DNA of 64,000 nucleotides from a virus. The position numbers were made by a program, and so were the translations under genes. The stretch covers positions 39,293 through 103,292 of IMG/VR virus record IMGVR_UViG_3300012228_000001, one strand, 5' to 3'. The notes below the pieces were generated by a model. The model made no database searches, was not told where the DNA came from, and saw nothing but the letters and a program-made list of their open reading frames with translations. This document shows, piece by piece, positions 7,088-54,149 of this stretch (positions are counted from its first letter, which is position 1; each line of letters opens with the position of its first letter).

Positions 7088-7091
7088 AAAC

Positions 7092-22634: not shown

Positions 22635-23165
22635 ATGAATCCGAGAATCGCAAAACTAAAAACATACAAGGGCATCCCGATTGTTTTCTTCGCGACAATC
22701 GACAAGAAAGGCATTCCAGATTTCAAAGTAACCGACGAAGAGAAGCGGATGCGCTGCGGCAAGGAACATCTGTGCTGGATTTGCGGCGAACCGCTCACCA
22801 TGCCGATCTGCTTTATCGGCGGGCCGCACTCGGTTGCGCAAGGAACTTTTACCGATGGCCCCATGCACGCCGAATGCGCCGCCGACTCAATGGAAATGTG
22901 CCCGTGGCTTTTGGGACGCATGGACTATGCGCCGCCTGAATCGTTCAAGATGGACCGGCACAACAGGCCGGTGCGGTTTGTGACTGGTGCGGCGAGACCG
23001 GAAATGGTCAAGTCGCCTGACCGTGTTGCGATCTACAAGTGCTTGGGGTTTGACATACTAATCTTGCCGCTACAAGGCGGGCGCTGCGCTTGGTTCTTCA
23101 AAGCGTTCACTGCGCTATCCGTAGATTTTCGGGATCGGATTGCGCCAACTGCGAAAACAGCATAG
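22635..23165 (+). CDS. Conserved hypothetical Zn-binding protein
   Basis: CWICGEPL..FIGGP..PMHAECA..CPWL. Confidence 0.6.
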   Translation: MNPRIAKLKTYKGIPIVFFATIDKKGIPDFKVTDEEKRMRCGKEHLCWICGEPLTMPICFIGGPHSVAQGTFTDGPMHAECAADSMEMCPWLLGRMDYAPPESFKMDRHNRPVRFVTGAARPEMVKSPDRVAIYKCLGFDILILPLQGGRCAWFFKAFTALSVDFRDRIAPTAKTA

Positions 23166-24075
23166 CCATCCGATCCAATACAAATTCCTGATAGGCTTCC
23201 GGGTAGCCTCTCTTACTAGCGTTCTCAAGGCGGGCTAGGTTCATCAAGAATCTTTCTTGGTTGGACCTGCCGCCTTGGAACGCTTTTTTTATGTCCGGTT
23301 TCCGGTTCAATTTCCTGATCGCGTCTTTCGCGATTGCAAAATCATCGAACACCCGCGCCACCCCTATCCCAAGCTTCTCCGCAATATCCCGGTAACTCAT
23401 GTTGTCGACGGTTTTCATTTTGTAAATTTTAAGCTGCCGTTTGGCGAGACTCACATTTTTCCAAGTCGTGCGCGTCTTCTCTTTTTTCTTCAACTCGTCA
23501 CGGGCGTCTTTTAGCTTGATGTTGAATTCTTTTTCAATCTCGTCAAGCAAGTGATCGCGCTGCGATAGCGCGTATGCCTGCTCCATCATGCTTTCAATGC
23601 TGTTATTTTCGTCGGGGAGTGTTTCTGGTACTTCGGTGACTTCTGGAAAGCGGTCAATAATTTTCTGGCGCTGCTCGTCGGTTACTTCCCTATGGATCAA
23701 GTCGTATAACGTCCGGGTGCCCGTCATGCCGTGCCCGCGCTCCCATTGAAGATGCTTCAAGATACCGAACTTGATCGACGGCCTGATAAAATTCTCAATC
23801 GGCCCCGACTTTGGAGTATAGCGTCGCAACGCATGCAGGGCTTCGTGCATGCCAGCTTCGGCGGCGTCGTCGAACGATTGAAAGTGAACCCCTTTGGCTT
23901 TCTGATACGCGACGCTGATCGCCGACCATCTTTCGATATTGGGATAATGCTTCTCAAACAGTTTTTTCACACGCGGTGGGAACTTCGTGTTGCGATTATA
24001 GCCGCTGACCAAGCCGGTCCTGCGCCTGTATCCGCGCACGCGCTGAAAAGCCTTAACGCAGATCGCTATTATCAT
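23107..24075 (-). CDS. Phage RNA polymerase sigma-70-family factor
   Basis: Region 2-like DDAAEAGMHEALHALRRYTP..F..PSIKFGI; region 4 HTH MSYRDIAEKLGIGVARV. Confidence 0.75.
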   Translation of the reverse strand: MIIAICVKAFQRVRGYRRRTGLVSGYNRNTKFPPRVKKLFEKHYPNIERWSAISVAYQKAKGVHFQSFDDAAEAGMHEALHALRRYTPKSGPIENFIRPSIKFGILKHLQWERGHGMTGTRTLYDLIHREVTDEQRQKIIDRFPEVTEVPETLPDENNSIESMMEQAYALSQRDHLLDEIEKEFNIKLKDARDELKKKEKTRTTWKNVSLAKRQLKIYKMKTVDNMSYRDIAEKLGIGVARVFDDFAIAKDAIRKLNRKPDIKKAFQGGRSNQERFLMNLARLENASKRGYPEAYQEFVLDRMAMLFSQLAQSDPENLRIAQ

Positions 24076-24464
24076 GCGGGCACCACAACGGCGTCGGACA
24101 CATCTTGAGCATTCGCGCCTTCGCCGGATTCTGGAATGTCGAGATTCTCAAACACTCGAATCTCGGCAAATCCGTTATTGGGCACGGTTTGCCGACCGTC
24201 TGGATATCGCACCACCCACTCACCCCGATACAACCCCGCCTCGTTCGTGTCGCCCGGCTTCCATTCGTATTTAACCTGACCGCTGATCGGATCGTCAACG
24301 AGGATTGCCGCCCCGCCAATGATGGGCTTATCGGGACGATCCGGCCATCGCATCGCGAACCTGACCGTCGTGCCGGTCAAATCCATCACGCTATCATCGG
24401 CGTTCTTGAGCGTCGCATAGAGAGTCGGGAAGTTGTCTCCACGTTTCAAAAAAAAGTCAGCCAT
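24072..24464 (-). CDS. BppU N-terminal-like (baseplate/appendage) protein
   Basis: F.LKRGD..DLTG.TVRF..G.VKYEW..GDT..AG.Y.GE..V.YPDG..TVP motif. Confidence 0.7.
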   Translation of the reverse strand: MADFFLKRGDNFPTLYATLKNADDSVMDLTGTTVRFAMRWPDRPDKPIIGGAAILVDDPISGQVKYEWKPGDTNEAGLYRGEWVVRYPDGRQTVPNNGFAEIRVFENLDIPESGEGANAQDVSDAVVVPA

Positions 24465-27400
24465 CTTGAATCTCCGCGCTGGTGTGCGCTTGGTTTATTT
24501 CCGCGCTCGTATGCGCCCCGTTTATTATTTCGGCGCGATTATACGCTGGTGCGCCGTTCACGTCTACCGCCGTCGCTGATGTTCTCCCGCGCTGCGCGTT
24601 CACGAAGATTCCCGCCGAGTCAATCAATGCCCTAGCCAATGCGGCTTCAATCACACCAGCGAAGAAGATATTTCCGAGTGTCGAGTCTTCGTCATCCGCC
24701 GCGCTGGCGGCTTCGATTGCTTGCGCCGCTGTTACGTTGCCGCCATACGAAACGTCTTGGGCATTGGCCGCTTCGACCCGCGCCGCGACCGCATCTTGAA
24801 TGGCTGACGGTTGATCTGCCGCGCTGGCTGGCTCGCTCACCGCTGCGGCCACAACGATGACAGCGGATACATCGTCGAGCGCGATGCACTGCTCGCTTAC
24901 CGCCATGCCCGCCGTTGCTATTGCCGAAGGGGTATCTTGCGCGTTGGCCGGTTCGGAGATCGCATCCGCTTCGCCGGATATCGCTCCAAAGGACTCGTCG
25001 AGCGCCGCTGCCAGTTCTTCTATCGCCGCGCTTGTCGAATAGGTTGCGCCCGGCGAGTCTTGCGCTGTCGCCGGTTCGGCGCTCGATACCAGCGTAATGA
25101 CGGTCTGACTTGGCGCGTCAGTCGCCGACGCCGGTTCGGTGACGCTCGCCGCTTCGATGGTGTTGTTCCGATCTTGCGCGTCCGCCGCTTCGGTCGTTGA
25201 GGCAACTTGATTAGCAAGAGCGTCGGTCGTGTCTACAGCGTCGGCGGCTTCAACGATAGTTCCCAACAGGCCGACGACTATAATCTCTTGTGCAGTCGCC
25301 GCTTCGGTGATTGACGCGACCGCGTTTTGTATGGCGCTCGGCGCGTCGCTCGCTTCTGCTGATTCTGCACAAGCAGCCACAGCGAGCACAGTGGCCGATG
25401 GGTCGTCCTGCGCATTGGCGGCTTCGCTGATCGATGCCGGGCAAGTGGCGACGCCGCTCGGCGCATCTTCGGCTGTCGACGCTTCGCTGATCGATACGGG
25501 ACAAATTGCGACGCCAATAGGCGCGTCGGCGGCGTTTGCACCTTCGCTAATGTTGGCGACGAGCGTCGACGGCGCTGCGTTGCCCTGATCCTGCGCGGTG
25601 GCCGCTTCGCTGATCGACGCAGGAGTCTCGATGGTCCTGTCCGGCGAGTCCGCCGCGCTCGACGGCTCACTGATCGAGGCGACTTCGGTGGCAATGGCGC
25701 TTGGACTGTCGGCGGCGGCGGCGGCTTCGGTCGTCGACGGCACGCCGGTATAAATCGCCGATGGCGCGTCTTGAGCGGCGGCGGCTTCGGTCGTCGACGC
25801 GGCTGAAACCGCAGCGCCGGATGGATCGTCGGCAGCGCTCGCAGCTTCGGTGAGAGTCGCGACGGCGCTGGTGATTGCCGATGGCGCGTCGGTTGCGCTC
25901 GCGGCTTCGTCCGTCGAGGCGAGAAGCGTGCCAGCACCGCTCGGATCATCGGCGGCGCTCGCGGCCTCGCTGATCGACACCGAATGGGTCGTCGAGGGCA
26001 AAAACCACTGCGTCCCATCTTCCATCAACCCCGGCACACCCGGCGCGGCCTGCACGACAACCCTGCGGCCTATCGCATCCAGATTGTTGTCAAAAACGTC
26101 GTAGCCGTCCGCCGTGATTCCGACCTTGGTCGGCGGGACGGTTATATATTCGCTTGCGTTCGCCGCTTCGGTGATCGCAGCATTTATAAACAGGATTGCG
26201 TCCGGGTCGTCTTGGGCGTCGGCGGCTTCGGTCGTCGCGGAGAGAAGCGTACTGGCACCGTTCGGATCGTCGAGAGCGCTCGCAGCCTCGGTCGTCGACG
26301 GGACCATTGTGGCAATCGCCGATGGACTGTCGGCGGCGCTGTTGAGCGTCCCTTCTTCGATTGCAACTTGATGATCGGTGGCTGTCGACTTTTGAATGAA
26401 GGCGACTTCAACGCTGGCTGGATAGTTCGATGCTACGGGCAAGGCGGGTGTGGCATTGCCTACCGTGACCATGCTGTTATTCGAACTGGTCGTTGTAGCG
26501 TGGGTGTGACCGGGACTGGAAGCTGTAACCGCAGTGCCGGTTGCGCCGACAATGTTTGTGGTCGCGTTGATGGTCAGCGTGTGCTGGTGATCGGTAGCCG
26601 CCCAAGTGTGCGTATGGGCCGCGCCGGTGTGCGAATGGTCAGCACTCCCACCAGTGTTGAGCAGCTCGCTTAGAGCGTCGCAGCCCTTGATGAATAGCCC
26701 TTGGCAAAGATTCGGCGTGCCATTATTGCCGTCGCAGAGAATCCATCCCGTAGGAATGTCTGCAAGCACCTGAAGCCAAAGAGCGATCAACCCGCCCGGT
26801 GGTACTTCGCCACCTGCCGGTGGTGCGATGACTGCGAGTTTTATCCAAGGTGGTTCAGCCGCCGCTGCCGTGGCGTTGCCCGATTGCGAGAGCGCACCAG
26901 CATTGCAAAGGCCAAAATTGTTGGATGCTGCGCTGTAGCCGTGAGTATGCTGATCGCCCGCAACAGTGGCGCTGCCCTGCGCACTATTGGAAACGTTCCC
27001 GCCTGCGCCCGTAGTACCGCTTGGATGACCGTGAGTGCTTGAATGTTGGTGACTGCCGCCGACATGCGTATGATCGGCTCCACCACCAGTACCGCCGCCG
27101 TCGCCCGCTGCTGCCGCGCCGCGCAGAAATTTGTTCTTCCCATTGGCCGGTTGTGTCCACGAAGGCGGCAAAGTCGCGTTGTTGAAAAAAGTGATCGCGC
27201 CTTCAGGGATGGTCGTTGGCGAACCGTCCGATTCGATCCAAATCGTATCCCAACGAGCAGGGTCGAGATCGATACTGTCGCTGTTCGGCGCGGCGGTTCC
27301 GGTGACATCCGTACTGGCCGCGACTACGCCGACAGTGTGAGTATGAGTAAGGTTTGTCTGTGAATCGACGCCTGCGGCAGTGGAGTGTTGGGCGCTGCCC

Positions 27401-27630
27401 GAAGCGGCGGCGGTGCTGCCCCCGGTTAAGTGAGTGTGAGCTATTGTGTGATCGTGATTGGCAGTGGCGTGATAATGCTGCGCCGTGCCACCCGTACTGC
27501 CGGGGTCGGTGGATGAATTCGGGATGGACTTCGGGTGTTTTCCATCGAGCGCGGTGACACGACCCCACCCGCTAGGAATACTTCCCGCTGTGCTCGGCCA
27601 ACCAATTATTACATGAATGGGGATCGCCAC
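24457..27630 (-). CDS. Long fibre/appendage protein: collar-like and HxH domains plus Ala-rich repeats
   Basis: IPTGWILCDGNNGTPNL collar motif, many HTH metal-type triads, about 20-aa repeats in the C-terminal half. Confidence 0.7.
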   Translation of the reverse strand: MAIPIHVIIGWPSTAGSIPSGWGRVTALDGKHPKSIPNSSTDPGSTGGTAQHYHATANHDHTIAHTHLTGGSTAAASGSAQHSTAAGVDSQTNLTHTHTVGVVAASTDVTGTAAPNSDSIDLDPARWDTIWIESDGSPTTIPEGAITFFNNATLPPSWTQPANGKNKFLRGAAAAGDGGGTGGGADHTHVGGSHQHSSTHGHPSGTTGAGGNVSNSAQGSATVAGDQHTHGYSAASNNFGLCNAGALSQSGNATAAAAEPPWIKLAVIAPPAGGEVPPGGLIALWLQVLADIPTGWILCDGNNGTPNLCQGLFIKGCDALSELLNTGGSADHSHTGAAHTHTWAATDHQHTLTINATTNIVGATGTAVTASSPGHTHATTTSSNNSMVTVGNATPALPVASNYPASVEVAFIQKSTATDHQVAIEEGTLNSAADSPSAIATMVPSTTEAASALDDPNGASTLLSATTEAADAQDDPDAILFINAAITEAANASEYITVPPTKVGITADGYDVFDNNLDAIGRRVVVQAAPGVPGLMEDGTQWFLPSTTHSVSISEAASAADDPSGAGTLLASTDEAASATDAPSAITSAVATLTEAASAADDPSGAAVSAASTTEAAAAQDAPSAIYTGVPSTTEAAAAADSPSAIATEVASISEPSSAADSPDRTIETPASISEAATAQDQGNAAPSTLVANISEGANAADAPIGVAICPVSISEASTAEDAPSGVATCPASISEAANAQDDPSATVLAVAACAESAEASDAPSAIQNAVASITEAATAQEIIVVGLLGTIVEAADAVDTTDALANQVASTTEAADAQDRNNTIEAASVTEPASATDAPSQTVITLVSSAEPATAQDSPGATYSTSAAIEELAAALDESFGAISGEADAISEPANAQDTPSAIATAGMAVSEQCIALDDVSAVIVVAAAVSEPASAADQPSAIQDAVAARVEAANAQDVSYGGNVTAAQAIEAASAADDEDSTLGNIFFAGVIEAALARALIDSAGIFVNAQRGRTSATAVDVNGAPAYNRAEIINGAHTSAEINQAHTSAEIQDG
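24630..26370 (-). repeat. Coding tandem repeat, ~60 bp (20 aa; S[IT]xEAAxAxDxPSA)
   Basis: More than 20 degenerate units visible in the translation. Confidence 0.8.
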
Positions 27631-29776: not shown

Positions 29777-31228
29777 CTATCGAGCGAATCGTTTCCGGTG
29801 CTCACGGAAAGCCTCTTCCGCAAGCGTCCACTCCTGACTTCCCTGCTGAATCCCATACGCCAGAAGCACGCGGCTGATATCACCCCAATTGCCGGTCTTG
29901 AGTAGGTCACGCATTTCGCGCAACCGCTTGTTGGTTTTCTCGCGGGCTTCTTCGGACATTGGCGGTTTGCGCCCCCTCGATTGATCTTCTTTCATCGCCT
30001 GATGCACGTCGGCTTTCTTCTTGGCCTCTTCGTCGTCGGGATATTCATACTTGTACTTTCCCGGCGTGCCCTCGCGTGTAATGTAATCGTGCGTCGGTCG
30101 CACGGTGCCGAGCGGCATGGCTTTGACCGCCACGGCCATCTTGATCGGCTGCGGCGTGGCGACCGGGCGGGCGAAGTATTGACCGTCCCGGTAAACGATC
30201 TTGTCGACGCGCACCGCCTTGCGCAGCGGCGTGACCACGATGGGCTTGTGTACCGGCGCGATCCAATACACCGACACCGACTTGGCAAACTTGGACAGCT
30301 CTTTGTTGATCCATAACGAACTGGCGCGAAAGCCGTCGATAGGCTCCTTGTTCAAAAACAACAGCTCGAAGCCGTGCTCGGCTGGCTTGGTGTTGAGAAC
30401 GACCTGCTCAAACTCGCCGACCGGCTCGATAAAACTTGACCGGATATCGGGAGTCTTCCATGAATGCGCGATGCCGTCTTTGGCTTTATGGCTGGCGTTC
30501 TTTTCAAAGAACTTGATAAGCTGCTCGGCCTCACCCGGCTCGCCCGGCTTGAACGCGAGCGCATACTGGACGCTGCGGCCAAACGTTTGATCGCCGATCT
30601 TTTCAAGCTTGATGTTCGCGTCGCCGTGCCAGCTATCCTTCCACGCGACGACCGTGGCGACCGGCACGACTTCGTAGGGCACTTCGATGCCAAGCTTCGA
30701 CAACCGGCGCAACAGCTCTTCGCCGTGATCGGTGTGACCTTGGTACTGGTGATAAACGATCCGGTTCGTGCCTTGCCGCAATAAATTTGCGTAATCAGCT
30801 TTAGCGACGTTGTAGGCGTCTATCGGATAGCCGACCTTTTGGGCGACACTGATAATATGATCGCCCTCTTTCTTGATCGATGCCGGAACAAACTCGTCGA
30901 AGCTTTTCGGAATATCGCCGATGGTCTTTTGGAACGGCTCGAAGTAATTATGCTCGCCGCGCCCGGCACCGTGGAGCGCCGTCGCGCTGTGATCGCCATC
31001 GTTGCAGGCGTCGAGAAGCTTCTTTAGTTCCGCCGCCTTAATATCGAGCGGCTTGCCCTTGAACTCCCGGCGCACGCGCTCGCATAGGTGATCGAGCATC
31101 TTTTGATCGATTGGCCCCTTGCCGAAGTCGAGCGCCCGCGTGCCGTCCGGCCTGCGGTGCTCTTTCCAGGGTGCTTGCGGCTGCTGGTCTTTTGGACTGC
31201 TCTTTCCTGGCGCGTTCATCATGGTCAT
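29777..31228 (-). CDS. Putative internal virion (cargo) protein
   Basis: Several KS/KA sites followed by leader-like motifs (KAVRVDKIVYRDG; KAMP..HDYITREGTPGKYKYEY). Confidence 0.55.
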   Translation of the reverse strand: MTMMNAPGKSSPKDQQPQAPWKEHRRPDGTRALDFGKGPIDQKMLDHLCERVRREFKGKPLDIKAAELKKLLDACNDGDHSATALHGAGRGEHNYFEPFQKTIGDIPKSFDEFVPASIKKEGDHIISVAQKVGYPIDAYNVAKADYANLLRQGTNRIVYHQYQGHTDHGEELLRRLSKLGIEVPYEVVPVATVVAWKDSWHGDANIKLEKIGDQTFGRSVQYALAFKPGEPGEAEQLIKFFEKNASHKAKDGIAHSWKTPDIRSSFIEPVGEFEQVVLNTKPAEHGFELLFLNKEPIDGFRASSLWINKELSKFAKSVSVYWIAPVHKPIVVTPLRKAVRVDKIVYRDGQYFARPVATPQPIKMAVAVKAMPLGTVRPTHDYITREGTPGKYKYEYPDDEEAKKKADVHQAMKEDQSRGRKPPMSEEAREKTNKRLREMRDLLKTGNWGDISRVLLAYGIQQGSQEWTLAEEAFREHRKRFAR

Positions 31229-31242
31229 GCTATAGAACCCGA

Positions 31243-31677
31243 ATGGCTGATCGACGATACGTTCACGGCATGGCCGGAACAAAGCTTTATTTTCTCTGGC
31301 GTAACATGCTTAGTCGCTGTTACAACTCCAACGATTCTCATTATCAATGGTGGGGCGGGCGCGGCATCACCGTCTGCGATGAATGGCAAACGTTTCCACC
31401 GTTCTACGCTTGGGTGCTGACGATTTATCCCGATGGTCAAATCCCCAAAGGCTTGACGCTGGATCGCAAAGAGAATGAAGGTCATTACTCGCCGGACAAT
31501 TGCCGCTGGATTACTCATAAAGAACAATGCAACAATCGTCGCTCTAATCGCTGGCTCACGCACAACGGGAAAACGCAGAACGTCGTCCAGTGGGCGAAAG
31601 AGTTGAATGTGCCCGCGCCAACTCTGTATGACCGTCTTCGTAAGGGATGGCCTGCTCATAAAATCCTAGTGTCTTGA
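31243..31677 (+). CDS. Homing endonuclease-like protein (YGGRGI family)
   Basis: HGMAGTKLY..MLSRCYN..WGGRGITVCDEW..TLDR..YSPDNCRW; paralog of 507-1112. Confidence 0.8.
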   Translation: MADRRYVHGMAGTKLYFLWRNMLSRCYNSNDSHYQWWGGRGITVCDEWQTFPPFYAWVLTIYPDGQIPKGLTLDRKENEGHYSPDNCRWITHKEQCNNRRSNRWLTHNGKTQNVVQWAKELNVPAPTLYDRLRKGWPAHKILVS

Positions 31678-31953
31678 AAATTTCCCTTGATATTGAATTT
31701 GGTATTGGGGCGGAACTTCTTTCCCCTGCTCGTCGACCGCTGCCTGCGGCTGGCGATTCTTCATGCTCTGGACCGCCGCTGCCTGCGCTTCCTTGCGCCG
31801 CTTGTCTTCTTCCTTGTCGAGTTGCTTGACGCGCTGATTGTTGCCGTAGCGCTCGTGCGTCGTCATGCGCGGCGACACGGCGAGATAGGCTTCGAAGTCG
31901 GCCTTCTTGACCGGCTTGACGATCTGCGACTTCTTGACGTTGAAGACGTTCAT
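31666..31953 (-). CDS. Hypothetical protein (possible cargo)
   Basis: N-terminal VKKS..VKKA; coupled to the upstream gene. Confidence 0.5.
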   Translation of the reverse strand: MNVFNVKKSQIVKPVKKADFEAYLAVSPRMTTHERYGNNQRVKQLDKEEDKRRKEAQAAAVQSMKNRQPQAAVDEQGKEVPPQYQIQYQGKFSRH

Positions 31954-32792
31954 TACTTTGGGTCTGCCAAAACGTCGACGAAATGCGCCCCGCGTTGCAC
32001 CATGCGCTTTGCGCCATCTTCGCTAAGGCGCACCCTGTCACCGTCCGATTCCGTCCAATACTCCCAAGCGCCGCCCGATCTGTCGCGGAAGACCTTGTTG
32101 CCAGCTAGGGCCGACGATGTTGGCTTGGGCATAGACGGTCTATCAACGTCCGGGTCGGCGTCTTTCCCACGCTGCGTGTACCCCCCGACCGCGTGCCCCC
32201 CGCGAACGTGCGGCTTGACCTGCTTAATCGCTTTTAGCAGCGACACGACGACAAAAAATCCATCGCCGAGAAGCGACTTGCGATAGGGCTTGTCGCCGGG
32301 ACCGGGCCGATACATGACGTTATGCCTTGGTTCTGGCGCGTCGGGATTCTTCGCGTCGGTCATCACGTCGCCCTCGGCCACGCTCGGATCGAGGCTCGGC
32401 GCCGCCCCGTGCCCGACCACGCTCTGCACGATCTCTTTTTTGCGATAGGGCTGATTACGCTGCACCATTGGGCGGTCGGTTGAGCCGTACTCTAACCGCT
32501 TCGTTTTCTTGTCCGGGTTTTGATGACGCTGCACTGCCGGATTTTTCTTCGACGGTTGAAGCGGGAGATTGCGGATGGCCTTCGCCGCCATGCCGTTGCG
32601 CTTCTTCTTGGCGGCATTGACGTTGTGCTCCTGCTCGTCGTTGTAGGCGTGACTCTGCGGATGGCGGTTCTGCTTATCCCATTCTGGCTCTTCTTCGCTT
32701 ATGCCCGTGCTGCCCGCCTTGCCTTCATCCTCGACGCCATTGGACGACTTGATTAAAACGCGCTTCCCGCGCAAGGAAATCATTGGTAGCAT
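31953..32792 (-). CDS. Putative internal virion protein with leader repeats
   Basis: Contains KAIRNLPLQPSKKNPAVQRHQ and KAIKQVKPHVRGGHAVGGYTQR. Confidence 0.6.
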   Translation of the reverse strand: MLPMISLRGKRVLIKSSNGVEDEGKAGSTGISEEEPEWDKQNRHPQSHAYNDEQEHNVNAAKKKRNGMAAKAIRNLPLQPSKKNPAVQRHQNPDKKTKRLEYGSTDRPMVQRNQPYRKKEIVQSVVGHGAAPSLDPSVAEGDVMTDAKNPDAPEPRHNVMYRPGPGDKPYRKSLLGDGFFVVVSLLKAIKQVKPHVRGGHAVGGYTQRGKDADPDVDRPSMPKPTSSALAGNKVFRDRSGGAWEYWTESDGDRVRLSEDGAKRMVQRGAHFVDVLADPK

Positions 32793-32802
32793 AAAACCCC
32801 CT

Positions 32803-33018
32803 TCAAGCAGCCAGCACTAAAATCCCCGTTTCACTGTAAACGATTTTGACGATTGTCTTGCAGCGTCGGCATCGTATTTCGATTTGATAAGACCCCTGCC
32901 CGCGTAGATCGCCGACGACTTCTGCGTTCGTCGCCAGCAACGTTCCACGCGGCTGTCCCGTCTTCGGGTCGATCCCGCAATGCCGGTTAGGGCAACGTAT
33001 CAAATCAATCTTCGGCAT
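32803..33018 (-). CDS. Com-family Zn-ribbon regulator-like protein
   Basis: IRCP..CG..LLA..IEIRCRRCKTI. Confidence 0.6.
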   Translation of the reverse strand: MPKIDLIRCPNRHCGIDPKTGQPRGTLLATNAEVVGDLRGQGSYQIEIRCRRCKTIVKIVYSETGILVLAA

Positions 33019-33238
33019 TCTCGGTCACACGTCCTATCACTTCGGCAAACTGCCCCATTCGATCTACCGGCCCAATGACCACGAGCAATTCCTTGCCTCG
33101 TAGCTGCGCCAGTTCGTTGATATGCTCGCCGACATAACAATGCAGCGAAAGGGTTACGGCCTCACCCGCGCCCCCGGCCATTTTTATCGCTGAACTTGTC
33201 GGCGGTATCGCCGCCTGAAAGGTTAGAATCTCTGCCAT
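33005..33238 (-). CDS. Hypothetical protein
   Basis: SD AGGAG; overlaps the next gene. Confidence 0.5.
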   Translation of the reverse strand: MAEILTFQAAIPPTSSAIKMAGGAGEAVTLSLHCYVGEHINELAQLRGKELLVVIGPVDRMGQFAEVIGRVTENAED

Positions 33239-33365
33239 CCCCCTGTTCTCCTTTCCCGTCGCGTTCCTGTAGCCGTGCTTTGATTCGCTCCAATAGTTTC
33301 TGCGTGATCGCGTCGATCATCGGTTCGTCACTCTCGTCGATATAATCTTTTGCCTGTTCAGCCAT
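33162..33365 (-). CDS. Small acidic protein downstream of the zeta toxin
   Basis: MAEQAKDYIDESDEP..; start overlaps the toxin 3' end; SD GGAG. Confidence 0.4.
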   Translation of the reverse strand: MAEQAKDYIDESDEPMIDAITQKLLERIKARLQERDGKGEQGDGRDSNLSGGDTADKFSDKNGRGRG

Positions 33366-34473
33366 CGCGTTTCTCCAAAAGCACCGGCTCGTGGCCCTTC
33401 GGCACGTCGTTATCGTAAGCCTCAAAAAAATCCGCGAGCTGTTTTAGCTTCTCGTATGATCTGCGATTTTTATGGTCGTGCGTGGCAATGTAACGGGGAT
33501 CGACAAACCGATGGTCGCCTTCGGGATTGACATATCGGTCTATCGCACGGGTGATTGCTTTCTCTGGCGGCAAATCGGCAAACACGACACCGACCTTGTA
33601 ACCTAGTTTTCGAAACGTATCGATCTGCGCAATGTATTGTTCAGGGGTTTTGAGCGTGCAGTCGATCAAGATGTTCTTCCGCCCCTCTTCGGCTTGGGAA
33701 ATGATCTCGCTTACAACGTCGGTCGCTTCGTCTTGGAGAAGTGCCGCGTTCCAGCCTTGATATTCCGGCAGTTGGCGCTTCACGTCGTCCGAGTCGATAT
33801 GGACGAAATCGTTGAAGCCTCGCATCTTAACGATGGTTGACTTGCCGCTGCCGGGCACCCCGCCCATGTAAATTACACTCGGTTCGGCTTGAGACGGTAT
33901 TTGGTGAAGCGCCCCTTCGATGATCCGGTTGTGGCGCTGGCGTCGCGAAGACGTGTATTCCCCCGCTTCGGTGTGCAATTCTTTGGTTTGTTTCCCGGCG
34001 TTGACCCTATCGCGCAGACTATTAAATTCTTCGTTTAACCCGCGCTCGTCGACGATCTCATCGGCAAACTGGCGCACACGCCGGGCCTCGATATCGATTA
34101 CCGTATCCGGCTTGTTCCAATCCTCTTTCTTGCCCGGCTGGACGCTGGTGCGCGGCGGCTCGGCTTTGGGCTGCTCTTGCTGTGGCTGTTGCGGCTGCGG
34201 CTGCTTTTGCACCGCGACGCCGACGTTGACCTTGCCCTGGCGCTCTTGCGGCTCTGGCTTCGGCCCGCCTTGCCAGCGGCGGACCATCGGGTTTGTCTTG
34301 GACGGAATGAGCTGCAAGCCCGGTCCCGGCGCTGCGCCAGCCTGATACGGCTTGGCGGCGGGCATGGCCTTGGACGCGCCGGACTGCTCGGCCATGATGG
34401 CGTCGACGAGCATATCGATTGCCTCGTCTTCGTCAGTCTCGTCGTTTATGCCGACTAGCGCGATTCTCTTCAT
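33358..34473 (-). CDS. Zeta toxin-family P-loop kinase
   Basis: MGGVPGSGKST, IDSDDVK..LPEY, NILIDCT, RFVDP..I, YDN motifs. Confidence 0.85.
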   Translation of the reverse strand: MKRIALVGINDETDEDEAIDMLVDAIMAEQSGASKAMPAAKPYQAGAAPGPGLQLIPSKTNPMVRRWQGGPKPEPQERQGKVNVGVAVQKQPQPQQPQQEQPKAEPPRTSVQPGKKEDWNKPDTVIDIEARRVRQFADEIVDERGLNEEFNSLRDRVNAGKQTKELHTEAGEYTSSRRQRHNRIIEGALHQIPSQAEPSVIYMGGVPGSGKSTIVKMRGFNDFVHIDSDDVKRQLPEYQGWNAALLQDEATDVVSEIISQAEEGRKNILIDCTLKTPEQYIAQIDTFRKLGYKVGVVFADLPPEKAITRAIDRYVNPEGDHRFVDPRYIATHDHKNRRSYEKLKQLADFFEAYDNDVPKGHEPVLLEKRDG

Positions 34474-35228
34474 GCCGCCATCTGTATCGTTTCGTTCTTC
34501 TCAAGGTCATAGATTGCCAATTGATTTGCTTGCAGGGCGAGCTGCCGCGCCTGTTGGAAATCGTCTACAACGGTCGAGATGTCGAGATATACTTTCCCGG
34601 TCGTTTCGTCTTTCCACCCGCCGAGATAGTTCCGCGACGCCTTGATCTGATCCCAATGCTCCCGCACATAGGTCTTGACCCGCGCCCGTAGCGCTTGCGG
34701 CTCAATCGGCCCGTCGATCACTTCTTCGGTGTTCTTGGCGAGCGATAACGCATAGCCCCGGCGCGGCGCTTCTCGCTCTTTGTGGCGCACCGGGTTATAA
34801 GTGACCCCGCCCTGCTTTTGGATAACGTCAGCCAGCCCGCCACCCCGGTTGGCATGGGTGTGTTGATCGTGCCAGCCTTGCAGGTGCTTCTCCATCGGCT
34901 CAAGCCCCAATTCCCGCGATAGATGGCCCTGGCTGCCCCGTGGCGTGAAGCTACCCGAACCTGAACGTACATCATGCCTCGGCGACGGCACTAACGCGGA
35001 CGGTCCAAATTGAGAGGCGTGCCCATTGAATCGGAGCAGGCCGATAGTCTCGTTCATGGAGTACATGGCGTTTTCGATCTCTTTGGCCTTCTCGATATCC
35101 CCCGCCTTGATGGCCTGCTCGCGCTCGACTCTGGCCCCGTCCATGAACATTTCGGCCCGGTTCATAAGATCGACAAGATCGCGGTCGGCCTCGGCTGCGG
35201 CTCGGCCTGTTTCCGGTGAGGGTTCCAT
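34470..35228 (-). CDS. Putative cargo protein with conserved C-terminal domain
   Basis: KHLQGWHDQHTHAN leader, then GGVT..GYALS..YLGGWKD..G.VYLDIS..A..LA..NQLAIYDL. Confidence 0.6.
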   Translation of the reverse strand: MEPSPETGRAAAEADRDLVDLMNRAEMFMDGARVEREQAIKAGDIEKAKEIENAMYSMNETIGLLRFNGHASQFGPSALVPSPRHDVRSGSGSFTPRGSQGHLSRELGLEPMEKHLQGWHDQHTHANRGGGLADVIQKQGGVTYNPVRHKEREAPRRGYALSLAKNTEEVIDGPIEPQALRARVKTYVREHWDQIKASRNYLGGWKDETTGKVYLDISTVVDDFQQARQLALQANQLAIYDLEKNETIQMAA

Positions 35229-35229: not shown

Positions 35230-38200
35230 TTATTGCGCCACTCCGAAAAACTCCAAGATTCTGCGGCCCAAGATGCTTTTAACGTATTGCTCCATTGCTA
35301 ATCCTACATGCACTGGATTAGCAAGCGATTTCAAAAGCGCAGGCGTGATCGCGCCGATGACCTTCATTTCGTTTTCGATCTCGGTCCAGTGCGCGTCCTC
35401 GAACGGGCTGTCGGTATAGCGGTAGTGGTGCAGAGCGATATCGCCCTTGCGCGGTGCCCGGTCTACCCGCCCAATGCCCTGATAGTAACCCGCCGCGTCC
35501 TGCGGGCGTCCGGCCTGATGGAAGGAATCGGCGGTCTGCAAGTTATGCCCGGCCTGACTTGTCTTGTCGATAAACATGATGCCCGCTTCGCCCTTGTTCT
35601 TCTCAGCGGCCCACTGCTCTTTGCGCTGTGCGACGACGCGCTCAAGCGCTTGGTCGGGGGTCAAGTTTTCTGTCTTGGCGATCTGCTCGGCTTCCTCTTT
35701 GAACTTGGCCCGCTTGTTCAGCTCGGTCAAATCGTAGGCTTTGATCTTCGCCTTGCGCAGTAGGGTGTTGAGCGCGACCCGCTGCGGTTCGCTATCGATG
35801 AAAACGACGTGGTGCGTCTTGCCCTCTTTGATCTCCGATAGGATGGTCTTGGCGACTTCCTTGGCCTTCGCGTTATCCTCGCCGCCGTGCAGATTGTTCC
35901 AGTGCCGCGTGTCCATTTCCTTCATAACCAAGTGATTGATGCGCTGACCTATCTGCGCTTTGGTCCGCCCCATGCGCTTGCCCTTGGCGGTTTCCTCTTC
36001 GGTGATCTTCGCCAGAAGCGTGTTGTAGCCAGCCTCGATCTCTTTCTGCCGGGCGATCTGCATTTGGCTACGCTTGACGGTGTGATCGTTGGTGACGACC
36101 TTGTACGGCTTATCGCCCGCTTTGCCGCTTTCGGTTCGTGTCTTGAATTGATCGCCGGAAACGTAGGGCGATATTTTCTGGAAAATTTGCTGTTGGATCG
36201 CTTCGTCTTGCGCGTTGGTGCCGTTGCCGCCGCCCGCGTACATGCGGCCAAAGCCGACCTTGCTGCCGATCTTGGAATGAAAAATCGGGTTCCCTTGAGA
36301 GCCGTCTTTTTTCCTCTGATACCCGGCAAATTCTTTCGTCGCCCAATTGACCCACTCGTAAATTTCGTCCAACGATTCGCGGGCCGGTGATGCCGATAGC
36401 GCGACGCGATGTTTGAACGGGATGTTGACGATGCGCTTTGCCGCCGAGCCTAACCGTTCCGACGTTTGGCTTTTCAAGTTCTGCGGTTCGTCGATACTGG
36501 CAAAGTCAAACCCGTGGCCGGTGATCGCGTCAACGTCCCACTGCGAGCGCAGCGCGTCCGAATGCGAGGCGATGACGAGCTGGCCGGGCTTGATCTGTTT
36601 CCAAAATTTCTGCCTTTCTTCCTTGGTCGTTTTCTCTGGAATGACGAGAATGTCTAAATCGGTCGCCCGGTGAAGCTGATCCGCCCATTGCGCCGTCAAG
36701 CCATCCGGGCAAAGCACGATGCCTTTGTAGTGCGGGTTTTTGGCGAGCAAGTGCGACCACCAGCCCGCCGTCGTGAGAGTCTTGCCAGCGCCGGTCGTGC
36801 GCGTGAGAAGACCGCCGCCCGTCTTGTTGAGCCAGTTGATATCGTTGCGCTGCGGCAAGCGTAACGCGAAATCCTCTTTTACGCCCGCGTCGTTTATCCA
36901 TTCGCGTTTGAAGTGCGGCGGGCGGTCCATCGGCGTGAAAGGCGTATTATCGGTCTTGATCTTGTTCAGCTCGGCGACTTCCCTGCTGAGAATCGGCGAT
37001 TGCGTGCCCCACCGATTTGCAAGATAGCTGGCGTTCCCGGTGATCTGATATTGGAGAATCGCTTCCCCGGTCGTCGCGTCGGTGCCGATAATGTTGTGCG
37101 CGATCTTGATCTGTTCGGGAATTTTGCTTGGCGAAACGTTCAGCTTTTCTTTGAGAATCCGATAGGCGTTGTCTTTCGACATGCCGACGTTGATCGTGAC
37201 TCGCTCGTCAATACCGGCCTGCGCATGCTTCATGGCAAGCAACAGCGATCCGCTGGCCGCGAGCGATCCGTAAGCCCGCCCGATGTTCTGCCGCCGCTGT
37301 AAAATGTTGTATGCCTCTTGGCGCATGATCGTCGCTTCGGCGGTCAACTCGCCGTTTGCCTTCTGGCGCTGAATTTCCTGATACGTCGCCTTGAGTTTCT
37401 TGTCTTCGTCGAGCGCCTTTTGCTCCTGTGCTAGTAGGTTTGTCTTGTTGTCGTTTTCGATTGCCTGAATGATCGCGGTGATCGACTGGCCTTTAAGCTG
37501 GCGCTGGCGGGCTTGGCCGACAAGCCAGTAGCCGACTATCGATGCGGTCACTTGAGGCGAGAAGGCGTCCGACAACCGGCCAACGTCAAGTTCGATGCCG
37601 GTATGCTTTCCCACTAATCCTGTAAGTGCAGCCGCAGCCGCGCCGCTGACAAAGCCCTTGCGGCGCTTTAATAAACCATTGAGATATTCGCTGCCGCCGT
37701 TGGCGACCGCGCCGTTGAGCGCATAGCCGACTTCATCGTTCCAATGTTCATGGACGACGCTGTAAAACGATTCGTCGCCGTTGATCTTGGTCCGCGCCGC
37801 GTAGCGTTCAAGGGCGTTGCGCACGTCTTCATCGGTGACTCGCTCCACGGCACTCTGGCGCAGCGCTTCGAGGGCGTTGGCTACGACGACCGTTTCGGGG
37901 CGGGGGAGTCGCGGCGGAATGATTTTGAGAATCTCTTTCTTTTCCGCCATTGCGCGGGTGAACGCATTGAAATCGTCGAGCGCGGTCTTGGCCGCTTCCT
38001 TGTCTTGGGTCAACAGGACTCTATCAAGCGGATCGCGGGCCTTCTTGGTTGGGATGATTACGATGGCGTCTTTCTTTGCCTCTTCGCGCAGCTCTTGATT
38101 TTCCTCGCGGCGCTTTGCCGCCTGCGCGGCTTTCTTGTGCATGTCTTCGGTAGTGGCGAGTTCCACTTCCTGCGGCGTATTGGCTTGGAGCGGCACTTCC

Positions 38201-41200
38201 GGCGCTTCCATTTCAAGCGGCTGCTCGTCGCGGGCAACGACTTCTTGGATCGCTTCGATATTCGCGAACCGATCATCTATCGCCTGCGCAGCTTCTTCTG
38301 CCGTGTTGAACGTGCCAATCACATTGTCGTCGCCAACGTAGGCGTCATAGACCGCCGCCGTGCTGTCGCCCTCGGCTTCACGCGGCACAACCGCCGCTGA
38401 CGCCGCTTCAACCGTTTCGCTGTCCCTAATCCACATGGGTTCATTGGGTGTTGGGCCAACGTCAGCCTTCCAACCTTCGGGCGGCTTGTCCGGCACTGCC
38501 GATAGCGGCGTGCCCGCGAGCGGCTCTTCGCGTTCCGGCTTGGGCGGGTGAATGATCTCTTCCAAAACTTTCTTGTAATAGTTGAACTTCCGAAGCGCCG
38601 CCTCGCGCTGCATGCGCTTCATAATCTGATCTTGGACCTTGGCGACGGTCTTGGCGTAGCCCTCGATCAACGATTCTTCCATCCCGGCATTCGTCGCTTG
38701 GCGCTTGGCGCTCTCGACGACTACTTTCTGTTGGACTTGGGTGAGACCGAGTTTGGATATGCCGACCGACTCCAAAAACTTCTGTTCAAGTTCTTTCGTC
38801 TTGGCGCTGGCCTCGTGGCGGACTTCTTTAAGCTTTGCCTCGTAGGGTGCGCGTTCTTCGCGGCGCTTCTCGTATGCCGCCCATTGTTCTACGTCTTTGC
38901 GCTGCTCTTTCAACGCGCCCATCTGGAAACTCGCGTGCGCCAGCCCGGACTCTTCTTGCCAGTCGCCGACTTTGTAACCAGCACGACGCGCTTCGCCCGG
39001 ATCGATGACGGCCTGATTGTCGGCCCGCTTGGTGATTAAGATATGGCGACCGGCGAGCGGCGAACTTGGATCGGTTACGGTAATCCAAACGGACGCGCCG
39101 ACCGGCACGTTGGCCCAATCAATCTTGTTGCTGCCGGGAAGATGCGGCGTTGAGATAATGCCTTTGCGCACCGATGGCATGATCGCGAAGATGACGTTGC
39201 CAAGCTTGACGCCGTTGGGCGTCGGCGTGACGACGAACGCAACGCTTTTCTTGATAGGCTTGGCGACCTTGGCGGCATACTCGGCTTCCATCCAAACATC
39301 CTTGAATTTATCGCTCGCGTGCATACGGTAAATCTGCTGGCGTGTCATGCGCAAACCGATCTTTGCCAGGGCCGCTTCGGTGGCCGTAATCATCTTTCGC
39401 CAACCGTCGTCTGTGCTCAAATTAAACGAGCTAGATTTAACCGTCTTGAGCTGTTCCTTGATTTTATCTTCGAGCGCATTCTGTGCCGCCAGCCCCGGAT
39501 TGCGCCGGTGCATTTCGGCCCATCGTGCTTCACGACGCGCCTTAGCCTCGGCCATGTATTGCGCGTCCAGCTCTTCATCGGTTTGATGGCGCATGACTGA
39601 GGGATTTTTCTTCGATGGCTTGAGCGGCAAGTCGCGGATCGCCTTGTCAATCTCCACGTCGCGTGCGCGGATAAAATGTTCGGGGTGATCCTTTGGATGA
39701 TAGCCGCGCTCGCCGTGCTCTTCGTTGCCGTAGAAAGACTCGGAGAATTTGCCGAACGCCGGGTCGGTGACACTGCCCTGCGGGTTTTTATGCTTGTACG
39801 CTCTTTGAATCGCGGCGTTGTGATCGAGCCAAGACGAATGCACCGTGCCGTCTTTGAGCCGTACCGCCCGAAACGCGCCGGGGGGGATGGCCGGTTGCCG
39901 TGGCGGGGCGTTCCACTCCATGCGGTTGCTTCCCTGATGCCGCATGACTGCCGGGTTCTTCTTCGAGGGTGATAGCGGCAAATCGCCGATTGCTTTCTTC
40001 GCGTGATCCATGAAGCGGAAATCTTTGCCGCTCCAATTGTCATGCCAGCAATTCTCGCATACTGACGCATGCTGCCCGGTTGCCGAGTTCTGATACTGCG
40101 CGTGTCTAGTCCGCTCGCCGCAATTCTCGCAGTTGTCGTCGTGTTCACGAATCAGCGAATGCAACTCGCCGCCCATCTTGAGCGGGTTCTTGCCGACAAG
40201 CTGGTGACGGCGCACTGCGGGGTTTGACGGAGCTGGCAGTAACGGAAGATTCCCTATCGCCTTGATGGCGATGACAATGCCCTTCCACAATGAAGTGCTA
40301 GGGCCGCATTTCTTCATCGTGCGATAGAGAGAAAAATCATTCTCCATAAACTCGCGCATGGAGAATTCGTAGTACCGATTCTTTGAGCGGTTATCGGATG
40401 AAAAGTCTAAAACGACCGTTTGCTTTGGTGCCTGCGGGAATTTTCTAAGACTTGCCATAATACAGTCTTCCACAATACGGAATGCGCTTTCGGTTCCGAC
40501 TTCGTAATCAAAGGACGCACCACGCCTCACCCAACCATCTGTAAGCAATTTCCTAATGCTACGTTCACCGTCGCCCCGCGGTCGCCCATGTATGGCGATA
40601 TTGGCTATGTCTTCGTGTTCCTGGCGACCACCATGATAAAACGGTTTTCCTACCGCTTTCCTATCTGGCGTGATGAATGCGCCGGACCACAACTCATCTG
40701 TGATCGGCACACCTGCCCGTCCAAGATTATTTTTGTATTTCTCAAGCTGCGCGTCTGAGTGTTGCACCGGGCTGACTTCGCGCTGTTGCGTAACGGGTTT
40801 GTTTAATTGCTGGTGTCGCTTCACCGTTGGATTCTTTTTCGATGGAAGCAAGGGCAAGTCGCGGATCGCCTTCCACGCATCGGGCAACGCGGAGTACACT
40901 TTCGGCTTCCAAGGTTTCTCCCGGTAATCGAAATCGAGCGAGCCGAGTTTCTTGTCGAGCGCTTCAAGAATCTTGTCTTCGTTCTTGAGAACGCCGCGAT
41001 GAAAAATTTCGCTGTCTTTGTCGCCCATGATAGCCTTCGCCAGTAAGTGCCGAGCCTTTGCCTTTTGTTCGTTGACGCATAGCTTGAAAATCTTCTCGTG
41101 CGGAACGTGAGCGTTAAACTTGAATTCGCCGTTCCAATCGCCCATGTCGAGCAAAAAGTCCCTGCCGATCTTCTCGCCGTTGATTCTAAACCGGGCAATG

Positions 41201-43826: not shown

Positions 43827-44501
43827 ATGTCTGAACGTATCGATTTGACTAACCGACTCTTCGGCCACTGGACCGTTCTGAAATACATCGGCAATCGTTT
43901 TTGGTTTTGCAAGTGTGACTGTGCGAACGCCACCGAAAAAAACGTTCATGGCGATTCGCTTAGGCGCGGCGGAAGTACAAGTTGCGGTTGTGAACAGCGA
44001 ACCCTGGCCGCTCAAAAACGATTGAAGCACGGGAATGCCAGACGGAAGCGGATGACAACCGAATATACGATATGGCTTTCGGCTAAAAACCGATGCTCCA
44101 ATCCGCAGTGCAAATCCTTTGAACGATACGGCGGACGCGGTATTTACATGTGTCGCGGATGGAAGGAGAACTTTGAGCAGTTTTTGGCGGATATGGGCGC
44201 ACGGCCAAAGGGGATGACTCTTGATCGCAGAGATAATAATAAGGGTTACTGGTGCGGCCACTGCGACGAATGCAAGCAAAATAGTTGGACTGCGAACTGC
44301 CGATGGGCAACTCGCGAAGAGCAAGCAAATAACAAGGAAGTCAATCACAGGATTTCCATTGCAAACGAAACGATGACCGTCGCGGAGGCGGCTGATCGAT
44401 TTAGAGTTGACGATAAAATCATTTATCAGCGTATCGGGCGCGGCTGGACTGCCGAGAGAGCCGTTTTTACCCCAATTCGAACGTTTACCTTTCGCGACTA
44501 A
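43827..44501 (+). CDS. Homing endonuclease-like protein (YGGRGI family)
   Basis: DLTNRLFGHWTV..CKCDC..SCGC..YGGRGIYMC..TLDRRDNNKGY..NCRWAT. Confidence 0.8.
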   Translation: MSERIDLTNRLFGHWTVLKYIGNRFWFCKCDCANATEKNVHGDSLRRGGSTSCGCEQRTLAAQKRLKHGNARRKRMTTEYTIWLSAKNRCSNPQCKSFERYGGRGIYMCRGWKENFEQFLADMGARPKGMTLDRRDNNKGYWCGHCDECKQNSWTANCRWATREEQANNKEVNHRISIANETMTVAEAADRFRVDDKIIYQRIGRGWTAERAVFTPIRTFTFRD

Positions 44502-51766: not shown

Positions 51767-52948
51767 TTAATATGCCGTGATCGGCTCGGTGCCGGTCGGT
51801 CGTAACGGCTCGGTTGGTATTGGCCCCTCTACGTCCAGCCCCATTTGTTCACGCCCCGCACGGTATGGTCCGGCGTGCTGCTCGAATAGCGTGTTGGTTA
51901 CTTCGCCCCAATACTTTTGCCAGTCCGAGCACATTTCGTTCGGATGCGTCGCGCCAATTACGGCGCGGTATAGCCGTTCCTTGCGCACGCCAATATCTAT
52001 TTCTGGCGCAGTGCCGTTCTCAAGATCGCGAACACGATAGAGTCTCGGCGTGCCATCCGGGTTGGTGTAGAGCGCGAGACAGATTTTGCAGGCGTTCGGT
52101 CGCGTGATGCGGTAGACTCTATCTTGGAGCGTAAACTTTCCACTAGCTCGGTCTGCCCGCCAGCTTCCAACGCTGTACGCATTCGCGATTTCAGTACGCG
52201 CAATTCTCTCGAAGTCACGGTATATCCCGCCTGCTCTTTCCTCTTTGAACATATCGCGGGCAAGCGCTAACGGATGAATTCGCCGCTCGATGCCTTGCCT
52301 TATCATGTTGCGAAGCAACTCGCGCTCGCGCCGTAAAGCCGCCCCACGGATAAGCCTGCCCGCTTGGTCATAAACTGGCATAAGCAGGTTCAAGCTTTCA
52401 CTGCGGGCAATATTTATCGCCTGCCGCTCTGCCGCCGATACAGGATGCGCCATCGCGGCCCGGACAAGTTCGTCGAACGTCCGCAACCGTCGCGCTTGAA
52501 TCAAGTGGCGAATAAGCGCGAAGCGATAAGCTAAACCGGGAAAGTCTAAAACTTCTTGTTGAGTCCAGCCCCATCGGCGCAACCGGCGCTCGACTGCCGG
52601 GTCAACCGGAATGCCGACCATGCGCGAAGTGTGCGCCAAGCCGACTTCGAACATCGTGGTTTCCAGTTCCGATAGCTGCGCGGGTGTTAAGTTAGCGAAC
52701 GTGCCGCCGTGCTGGCGTAAATAATCCTCGACAACACGCCAGATATGGCGCTGTGCGCTCACGAAATGCTGCCGCGCCCGGCCTGCAAGCTGATTCAAAA
52801 ACCATTCGTCAAACTCTTCGGACATGGCTTGTCCCGTAGGAGTCCGCACGGCCTTGCATACCGGGTCATGCAAGTCTTGGACTATAAACAAAAGCGCCTC
52901 GATCTGTTCGGGCGAAGCACTCTCAAGGTTCTCTATTCGCAGGTTCAC
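51767..52948 (-). CDS. MuF/gp7-like head morphogenesis protein
   Basis: ERIARTEIANAY..G, ACKICL.LY...DG.PR, HPN..C motifs; near the portal gene. Confidence 0.75.
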   Translation of the reverse strand: MNLRIENLESASPEQIEALLFIVQDLHDPVCKAVRTPTGQAMSEEFDEWFLNQLAGRARQHFVSAQRHIWRVVEDYLRQHGGTFANLTPAQLSELETTMFEVGLAHTSRMVGIPVDPAVERRLRRWGWTQQEVLDFPGLAYRFALIRHLIQARRLRTFDELVRAAMAHPVSAAERQAINIARSESLNLLMPVYDQAGRLIRGAALRRERELLRNMIRQGIERRIHPLALARDMFKEERAGGIYRDFERIARTEIANAYSVGSWRADRASGKFTLQDRVYRITRPNACKICLALYTNPDGTPRLYRVRDLENGTAPEIDIGVRKERLYRAVIGATHPNEMCSDWQKYWGEVTNTLFEQHAGPYRAGREQMGLDVEGPIPTEPLRPTGTEPITAY

Positions 52949-54124: not shown

Positions 54125-54149
54125 GGATTTGCCCCACGTTTGAATTGAG

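Follow-up and report, generated by a model that had tools for sequence, protein, structure and literature searches.

A conserved basic peptide of 16-20 residues, here called the tag, recurs in a group of adjacent genes of a myovirus, and the same core heads protein modules in other phages. The genes lie in IMG/VR virus record IMGVR_UViG_3300012228_000001, a genome of 103,292 bp with direct terminal repeats, of which bases 39293-103292, a stretch of 64,000 nucleotides (the window), were analysed; coordinates below are those of the window unless another record is named. The motif is real and under selection; it is found in polyvalent proteins of other phages, and a module follows it in every case. 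On balance, we read the junctions marked by the tag as a cut site for the head maturation (prohead) protease followed by a leader that would be retained on each released module, the modules being effectors packaged in the head. We infer packaging, cutting of the cargo and the role of the leader from sequence, whereas the existence of the motif and its position are observed directly; the identity of the cut site is deduced from homology and statistics.

Under this reading, proteins encoded in the block at about 23.1-43.5 kb would be loaded into the procapsid and delivered to the host, the proposed cargo comprising a polyvalent protein with InPase, GNAT and SNF2 domains, a zeta-toxin kinase, small proteins and, probably, a sigma factor. 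Each junction would have two parts. The first, a hydrophobic or amphipathic stretch ending in K↓[A/S] (the arrow marks the predicted cut), would be cut by the phage's own prohead protease, the same site serving to trim the capsid protein, the protease itself and the scaffold. The second, immediately downstream, is the basic sequence L-x-L-x-P-S-K-x-N-P-x-V-x-R-[W/H]-Q, which after cutting would stand at the N-terminus of each released module as its leader. The cut site is proposed to vary with head lineage, and the leader to be kept across lineages and to be exchangeable for other types in orthologues. Most likely the leader would act as an address, one that has the module taken up into or kept among the contents of the head, or one that lets it leave with the DNA.

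Tag copies in the genome

The tag, K-[A/S]-I-[R/G]-[D/N]-L-P-L-x-P-S-K-K-N-P-x-V-x-R-H-Q, is present in eight copies, one of which is an R-W-Q variant. Six copies lie at module junctions of a giant protein of 2770 residues (35230-43542, minus strand), at residues 235-255 (42778-42840), 443-463 (42154-42216), 891-911 (40810-40872), 1094-1114 (40201-40263), 1183-1203 (39934-39996) and 1300-1320 (39583-39645). The seventh, of the R-H-Q type, lies at 32520-32582 in the open reading frame (ORF) 31953-32792, and the eighth, of the R-W-Q type that is the commoner form in other phages, lies together with its upstream K↓A at 34270-34371 in the gene of the zeta-toxin-like kinase, all on the minus strand. 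A regular-expression scan for the core in all six frames of the whole 103,292-bp genome gave 8 matches, all in frame and all within these three adjacent minus-strand genes, with no core outside them. The initial annotation had reported a repeated leader here and had placed its copies and the related peptides at 32520-32582, 34270-34371, 32169-32234, 34848-34889 and 30038-30124; all of these coordinates are correct and the repeat is real, with eight copies, selection on the peptide and a core that recurs in other phages.

The seven canonical copies show 72% amino-acid identity, and identical residues among them are encoded by the same codon in 43% of pairs, compared to 40% expected from codon usage. 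Such low codon agreement despite 72% residue identity indicates selection on the peptide and speaks against recent duplication. The repetition of the copies within one gene and its neighbours would also be produced by a recent tandem duplication or cassette recombination that left functionless remnants; however, the synonymous sites are saturated and the core is also kept in distant phages, so that this origin appears extremely unlikely, and recent duplication is rejected by the codon statistics.

The core is basic (net charge +4), Pro-rich and ends in an invariant Gln. K-[A/S] precedes every canonical tag in the window, and a hydrophobic strand also precedes three of them. The tag is covered by no Pfam, NCBIfam or named PHROG family. 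The core falls in predicted coil, the quality of the models being poor: AlphaFold single-sequence models of residues 160-1350 of the giant protein and of the zeta-toxin-like protein reached pLDDT (predicted local distance difference test) values of 41 and 40, respectively, too poor to set domain limits.

The tag in other phages

A profile built from the eight copies was searched against 1.84 billion representative proteins (cut-off E ≤ 0.001) and gave 43 matches, three being the window's own and 40 foreign (lengths 189-2760 residues); many of the matches carry 2-6 tag copies. A word-indexed homologue search added 17 further matches. The common core is L-x-L-x-P-S-K-x-N-P-x-V-x-R-[W/H]-Q, with R-W-Q as the majority form. 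Domains found in the 40 foreign proteins are InPase, ART-PolyVal, ddrB-ParB, RadC, LPD1, PBECR3, HD, protein kinase, GNAT, SAM lyase, topoisomerase IB and sigma-70 region 4, a set that is the repertoire of the injected polyvalent proteins of Iyer et al. 2017 (PMC5512222).

Scans with DNA patterns located the tag in 17 IMG/VR stretches. The DNA pattern for the R-H-Q form gave no match in IMG/VR and three true matches among metagenome contigs, and a peptide-pattern scan of IMG/VR with the giant protein gave no match. The tag also turned up in metagenome-assembled bins, the assignments of which were Planctomycetota, TA06, Ignavibacteriaceae, Bacteroidetes, Enterobacteriaceae and Bacillota. In a set of 50,697 phage records, Thermus phage MN1 alone is tagged. 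The tag was found in 0 of 72,556 plasmids, the polyvalent proteins of plasmids being untagged.

Across 68 tag-bearing proteins the tag is never C-terminal and is followed by at least 56, usually at least 90, residues; the gap between successive tags is at least 77 residues, and 36 of the 68 have their first tag in the N-terminal 80 residues. Because the tag is never C-terminal and a domain-sized stretch follows it, it is best regarded as the head of the following module. One of the proteins (P0029) has as its N-terminus exactly the residue that cutting would expose.

Genome setting

The block at 29777-35228 and the adjoining gene of the giant protein are encoded on the minus strand between tail-fibre and tail genes. 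The same strand around the block carries the genes for the tail fibre (a tail-fibre-like gene at 24457-27630), tail, portal protein (55283-57196), large terminase (59440-61506), capsid protein and protease. Directly upstream of the window, the record also encodes tail sheath and baseplate proteins, as expected of a myovirus. The portal protein has a homologue in all six of the tag-bearing IMG/VR records that were fetched; the capsid protein is shared by 5/6 and the protease by 3/6. The giant protein combines at least two unrelated effector domains in one polypeptide, namely InPase (residues 22-153), GNAT (residues 651-736) and an SNF2 helicase (residues 2240-2404), and its InPase domain, a signature of polyvalent proteins, matches PF18823 with E = 1e-49.

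Since packaging is inferred and several modules have no recognisable function, one could take the tagged proteins for ordinary intracellular proteins that are not packaged, and the repeat for an interaction motif or a flexible linker without any connection to the head. However, the genes stand on the late strand with tail-fibre, tail and head genes around them, their domain repertoire is that of polyvalent proteins, tags stand beside the portal gene in MN1 and among baseplate genes in another relative (L071), the upstream sites match the motif of the head protease (see below), and a search of 72,556 plasmids gave no tag. We therefore consider this explanation quite improbable.

The initial annotation had proposed a removable capsid-targeting propeptide followed by an exposed ejection leader. 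The part that holds up is the presence of a cargo block with polyvalent domains in the virion module and of a protease-type site before the peptide; the notion of a removable propeptide does not extend to the internal junctions, where the upstream side is another domain.

Candidate head-protease cut site

In this capsid lineage, the prohead protease very probably cuts at K↓[A/S] where hydrophobic residues come before it. The major capsid protein (3781-5274, minus strand; phrog_752) is related to the capsid proteins of staphylococcal phage 812 and SPO1 (Gp6.1) and matches 5lii and 9row (staphylococcal phage 812) and 9vel (SPO1) with E-values of 1e-18 to 1e-20. The deposited chain 9row is the 5lii sequence minus its first 24 residues and starts directly after the Lys that aligns with K38; from this alignment to the mature chain and from conservation, a maturation cut is predicted at K38↓A39 (5158-5163, minus strand). 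Five tag-bearing phages of IMG/VR keep the pattern h-x-K↓A-[L/V], where h is a hydrophobic residue, at the aligned position of their capsid proteins, and the protease of each such phage copies the site of its own capsid protein together with the residues after it. The head maturation protease encoded in the window (6227-7093, minus strand; phrog_1028) has sites at K20↓S and K209↓A, the latter followed by G-G-x-A-L-R-R-Q-S-L. The probable scaffold (5326-6210, minus strand) contains seven K-[AS]-[ILMV] sites compared to 1.24 expected (P = 0.0004), the figures being the same for K-[A/G/S]-[ILMV]; the scaffold regions of two relatives have 13 K-[A/G/S]-[ILMV] sites compared to 2.7 expected, and that of a third has 7 compared to 2.7. 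The site in the capsid protein, its copy in the protease and the enrichment in the scaffold together form the pattern of a prohead-protease motif. The homologous capsid protein, the conserved Lys at the cut, the site in the protease and the excess in the scaffold all agree with substrates of a prohead protease of the SPO1/Twort-like capsid lineage.

Upstream of the foreign tags, h-x-K-[AGS] is found within 22 residues in 37 of 56 cases, compared to 14% of random windows (p about 1e-19), and none of the control dipeptides (R-, E- or D-[AGS], K-[LIV], K-[DE]) is enriched there. Narrowed to K-[AS]-[ILMV], the pattern reaches 5.0 per 1000 residues in cargo proteins and 6.2 in head proteins, an enrichment over the 2.2 seen elsewhere, the motif instances being not fully independent.

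Two further observations concern these sites. Residues 204-236 of the protease (6386-6484, minus strand) repeat the capsid N-arm motif G-G-x-A-L-R-R-Q-S-L after K209↓A, and this copy may reflect self-cleavage or a mimicry of the capsid protein for co-assembly. K↓A-M-P follows the candidate cut in the scaffold (5326-6210), the zeta-toxin-like protein (34270-34371) and ORF 29777-31282 (30038-30124), and may be a sub-type of the cut site. A sequence shared by the tag and the capsid N-arm, R-R-x-Q, was considered as a protease exosite and dropped: the capsid proteins of the relatives are without R-R-x-Q, and their tags keep it.

A second head lineage in Thermus phage MN1

The residues upstream of the tag and the cut site of the head proteins were compared genome by genome in the six IMG/VR records and in MN1 (LC754405), a cultured phage whose host is T. 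thermophilus HB8. The capsid protein of MN1 belongs to another PHROG family (phrog_1005), and no head protein common to MN1 and the phage studied here was detectable by BLASTP. MN1_750, the product of the first gene after the MN1 portal (L057:14761-15849, plus strand), carries two tags. It is built of two repeats, in each of which an amphipathic helix leads to R-G-Y-[A/S] and the tag, with some 150 residues of helical domain behind them, so that the MN1 tags have R-G-Y-[A/S] upstream in place of K↓[A/S]. The broader motif R-x-[YF]-[AS] occurs in the MN1 proteome at 0.96 per 1000 residues; six instances are found in MN1_750 (P < 0.0002) and three in MN1_790, a protease-scaffold protein of phrog_976 (P = 0.005). 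R-x-[YF]-[AS] would thus be the cutting site of MN1. Because the upstream motif differs in MN1 with the same core, the cut element appears to follow the head lineage: the upstream element seems to track each phage's own head machinery, and the core stays constant.

The MN1 data also bear on the possibility that the head protease uses the core as an exosite, or that a second cut behind the terminal Gln removes the core, whose sole role would be to mark the cuts of a polyprotein. A dipeptide as common as K-[AS] would need added specificity, the core is always about 0-25 residues from a candidate site, and its last residue is invariant. However, MN1 pairs the same core with a different upstream motif, the sites in the capsid protein, protease and scaffold are without a core, and long polyproteins of the relatives have many K↓S sites and one tag only. 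An exosite or a marker of cuts is, accordingly, a decidedly unlikely role.

Candidate roles for the core are a head-loading signal, a hitch to the DNA for genome exit and a docking peptide for a host protein. Its retention across unrelated heads and distant hosts indicates a universal partner or property. The core could be a lineage-independent delivery or docking code that the protease of each phage exposes at the N-terminus, the module then leaving with the DNA or docking on a universal target such as DNA or the sliding clamp; this more specific proposal is plausible, if doubtful. If it is true, a single plug-in address for injected effectors is common to phages whose heads are unrelated, and the virion can carry even a sigma factor.

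Other leader types and the sigma factor

At the N-terminus of the giant protein and of a sigma-70-like protein, and at an internal start of ORF 29777-31282, K↓A comes after six to eight hydrophobic residues. In the sigma-70-like protein (23107-24075, minus strand), the hydrophobic strand and K↓A are followed by a basic leader of another type, V-R-G-Y..V-S-G-Y-x-R. A second instance of this type, V-R-G-G-H..V-G-G-Y-x-R, stands at 32169-32234 (minus strand) in ORF 31953-32792, after a hydrophobic strand and K187↓A, and is paralogous to the N-terminus of the sigma factor. In a 38%-identical sigma orthologue (P0014), the same kind of strand and K↓A are followed by a P-S-K-x-N-P tag. As the two leader types are swapped at one position in sigma orthologues, they can be argued to do the same job. 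Judging from its N-terminus, the sigma factor of the phage may itself be carried in the virion. Of the other Lys-initiated leaders listed in the initial annotation, the type at 32169-32234, with its paralogue at the start of the sigma factor, is borne out; recurrence of the H-D-Q and P-G-K-Y peptides could not be verified.

In the relatives, Q-[LIM]-x-[LM]-F occurs 20 times compared to 0.8 expected; 14 of the 20 stand directly after K-[AGS], and 12 of the 20 have the core within the next 45 residues. Pentapeptides resembling Q-L-x-L-F are seen at module junctions of P0002, P0022, P0034, P0038, P0052, P0058 and other proteins, where some stand alone, followed by peptides of the V-K-A-H-T-R type. 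Leaders of this kind at junctions suggest that the leader types form a wider family.

The pattern Q-[LIM]-x-[LM]-F is that of the bacterial clamp-binding pentapeptide (Q-L-[S/D]-L-F). Its excess in the leaders of the relatives (20 vs. 0.8), together with hydrophobic residues at the same spacing in the first half of the core, raises the possibility that the core is a docking peptide for a universal host target, such as the DNA sliding clamp, that acts after injection and is merely exposed by the cut. Such a role would also agree with a core that stays nearly identical among phages whose head proteins are unrelated and whose hosts extend from Thermus to bins of Bacteroidota, Planctomycetota, Bacillota and Enterobacteriaceae. 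However, the tags of the phage studied here are without the Gln and Phe of the pentapeptide and read D/N-L-P-L-x-P, and the cargo includes enzymes unrelated to DNA (zeta kinase, ADP-ribosyltransferases). We regard docking after injection as an unlikely role of the core.

Several observations weigh against a protease-cut junction with a retained leader for head-packaged effectors. About a third of the foreign tags are without an obvious upstream Lys site, and K-[AGS] is a common dipeptide. A count of hydrophobic-x-K[AS] sites, which the initial annotation had proposed as a check, is raised in head proteins (z = 4.6 above shuffled sequences) and does not exceed shuffled sequences in the cargo (z = 1.1). 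The cutting site of MN1 is deduced from motif enrichment alone. Many relatives carry one tag per protein of 1400-1850 residues, and hence a junction does not always need the tag. That the tags are linkers is weakly founded, both structure models being poor. The genomic context is known for a minority of the 43 proteins. Finally, the core is extremely conserved among phages with unrelated heads, which is easier to reconcile with a universal partner, either DNA or a host protein, than with a receptor specific to a head lineage.

Tagged proteins and their neighbours

The first 17 residues of the giant protein (43492-43542, minus strand) comprise the hydrophobic strand and K↓A mentioned above, M11 being an alternative start; no zincin-like metallopeptidase domain is present in the protein. 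The product of ORF 31953-32792 (minus strand; 279 residues) has three candidate K↓[A/S] sites, at K15, K71 and K187, all of which are kept in the same layout in a homologue (P0018). The zeta-toxin-like kinase (33358-34473, minus strand; PF06414 at residues 192-346, E = 1.9e-27) begins with a helix followed by K35↓A36 and the tag, and shows a weak match to NF041574; small ORFs downstream of its gene (33005-33425, minus strand) have no Pfam match.

A protein of 252 residues (34470-35228, minus strand) has a conserved domain, phrog_17808, at residues 138-248, directly preceded by an H-L-x-G-x-H-D-Q-x-x-H peptide (34848-34889, minus strand), a candidate leader with no match in the phage records. 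An untagged protein of 501 residues (29777-31282, minus strand) has K↓A sites at residues 355 and 387, and its internal start carries the hydrophobic-K↓A peptide; its central domain corresponds by homology to the C-terminal domain of a tagged protein (P0005), where that domain is headed by the tag, and an Atlas search with this ORF gave no usable match. Two opposite-strand ORFs within and at the edge of the cargo block, 31111-31677 and 43827-44501 (both plus strand), are paralogues (32% identity, E = 2e-23) that by eye resemble homing endonucleases and have no Pfam match.

Nearer to the portal gene, ORF 51767-52948 (minus strand; 393 residues) resembles by eye MuF/SPP1 gp7-like proteins, with C-x-x-C and an H-P-N motif near its end; it has BLASTP homologues in two other genomes (G001 and G012) and no Pfam match. 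Every tagged protein is free of the MuF domain by Pfam, this MuF-like gene standing apart, and megablast and tblastn searches of the block and of ORF 51767-52948 against the 50,697 phage records gave no match. Between the portal and MuF-like genes, ORF 53171-54187 (minus strand; 338 residues) shows by eye a papain-like Cys...His pattern and an acidic tail. It was considered as a conserved processing enzyme and rejected, since it matches nothing in PDB or Pfam and 13 tag-bearing records contain no homologue.

Comparison with known systems

Phage-type polyvalent proteins join unrelated effector domains in one polypeptide, are encoded among virion genes and are predicted to be injected, a zeta-toxin-like kinase being among those listed (PMC5512222). 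The likeness to the polyvalent proteins of Iyer, Burroughs, Anand, de Souza and Aravind (2017) lies in the InPase, GNAT and SNF2 domains of the phage studied here and in the ART, ddrB-ParB, RadC, PBECR and LPD1 domains of its relatives. That paper proposes processing mainly via zincin-like metallopeptidase domains within the proteins, and a text search of it for cleavage, linker, junction and motif returned no mention of a conserved junction peptide (PMC5512222); in contrast, the junctions described here carry a predicted prohead-protease site and a conserved leader, with no zincin-like peptidase domain.

In T4, the internal proteins IPI-III and Alt, which are diverse anti-host proteins, share a short capsid targeting sequence that directs them to the scaffolding core and is then removed by the prohead protease gp21 (PMC3012670). 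Both involve a short shared peptide on unrelated proteins, and the hydrophobic N-terminal peptides described here, which end in the predicted P1 residue, resemble the T4 sequence in form; the likeness to capsid targeting drawn in the initial annotation applies to the form of these short N-terminal hydrophobic-K↓A peptides. There is, however, no sequence similarity, and the predicted P1 is Lys here, compared to Glu in T4, whose gp21 site is I/L-x-E; K↓[A/S], the phrog_752 capsid protein and the phrog_1028 protease do not indicate homology to the T4 system, the capsid and protease lineage being SPO1/Twort-like. Moreover, the conserved peptide described here follows the cut, so that it would be retained, and is repeated inside polyproteins.

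The giant phages SPN3US and phiKZ have many head-internal, ejected proteins that are cut by an essential prohead protease at a lineage-specific motif (PMC10052503, PMC5694885). The protease specificity is another one there, and the abstracts of these papers report no retained leader shared across lineages. In the Dar system of phage P1 (DarB, DdrB, DarA), a large helicase-containing anti-restriction protein is packaged in the head of a myovirus and injected, and some components are processed before or during packaging, as discussed in the paper on polyvalent proteins (PMC5512222). No motif shared with Dar is known, and P1 loads its proteins in order via helper proteins.

In encapsulins, cargo-loading peptides, which are short, conserved and usually C-terminal, dock unrelated enzymes inside a shell of the HK97 fold. 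The resemblance is one of analogy only, as the sequence differs and encapsulins involve neither a protease step nor ejection.

To our knowledge, only the capsid targeting sequence of T4 has been worked out so far. For polyvalent proteins, a portable junction of the 'cut here, then leader' kind would offer a concrete handle on their entry into the head, their splitting into working enzymes and their delivery to the host: the peptide is defined, the protease site is predicted, and MN1 is available as a cultured phage. It could be used as a search key for injected effectors in metagenomes, including counter-defence enzymes and a virion-borne sigma factor, and, if it proves portable, could load chosen proteins into the phage heads of laboratory strains.

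Polyvalent injected proteins (PMC5512222), the capsid targeting sequence of T4 (PMC3012670) and protease-processed ejection proteins of giant phages (PMC10052503) are already known. What appears to be new is the leader described here, its pairing with a lineage-specific, predicted prohead-protease site and its exchangeability, none of which was found described in Pfam, NCBIfam, PHROGs or the searched text of PMC5512222.

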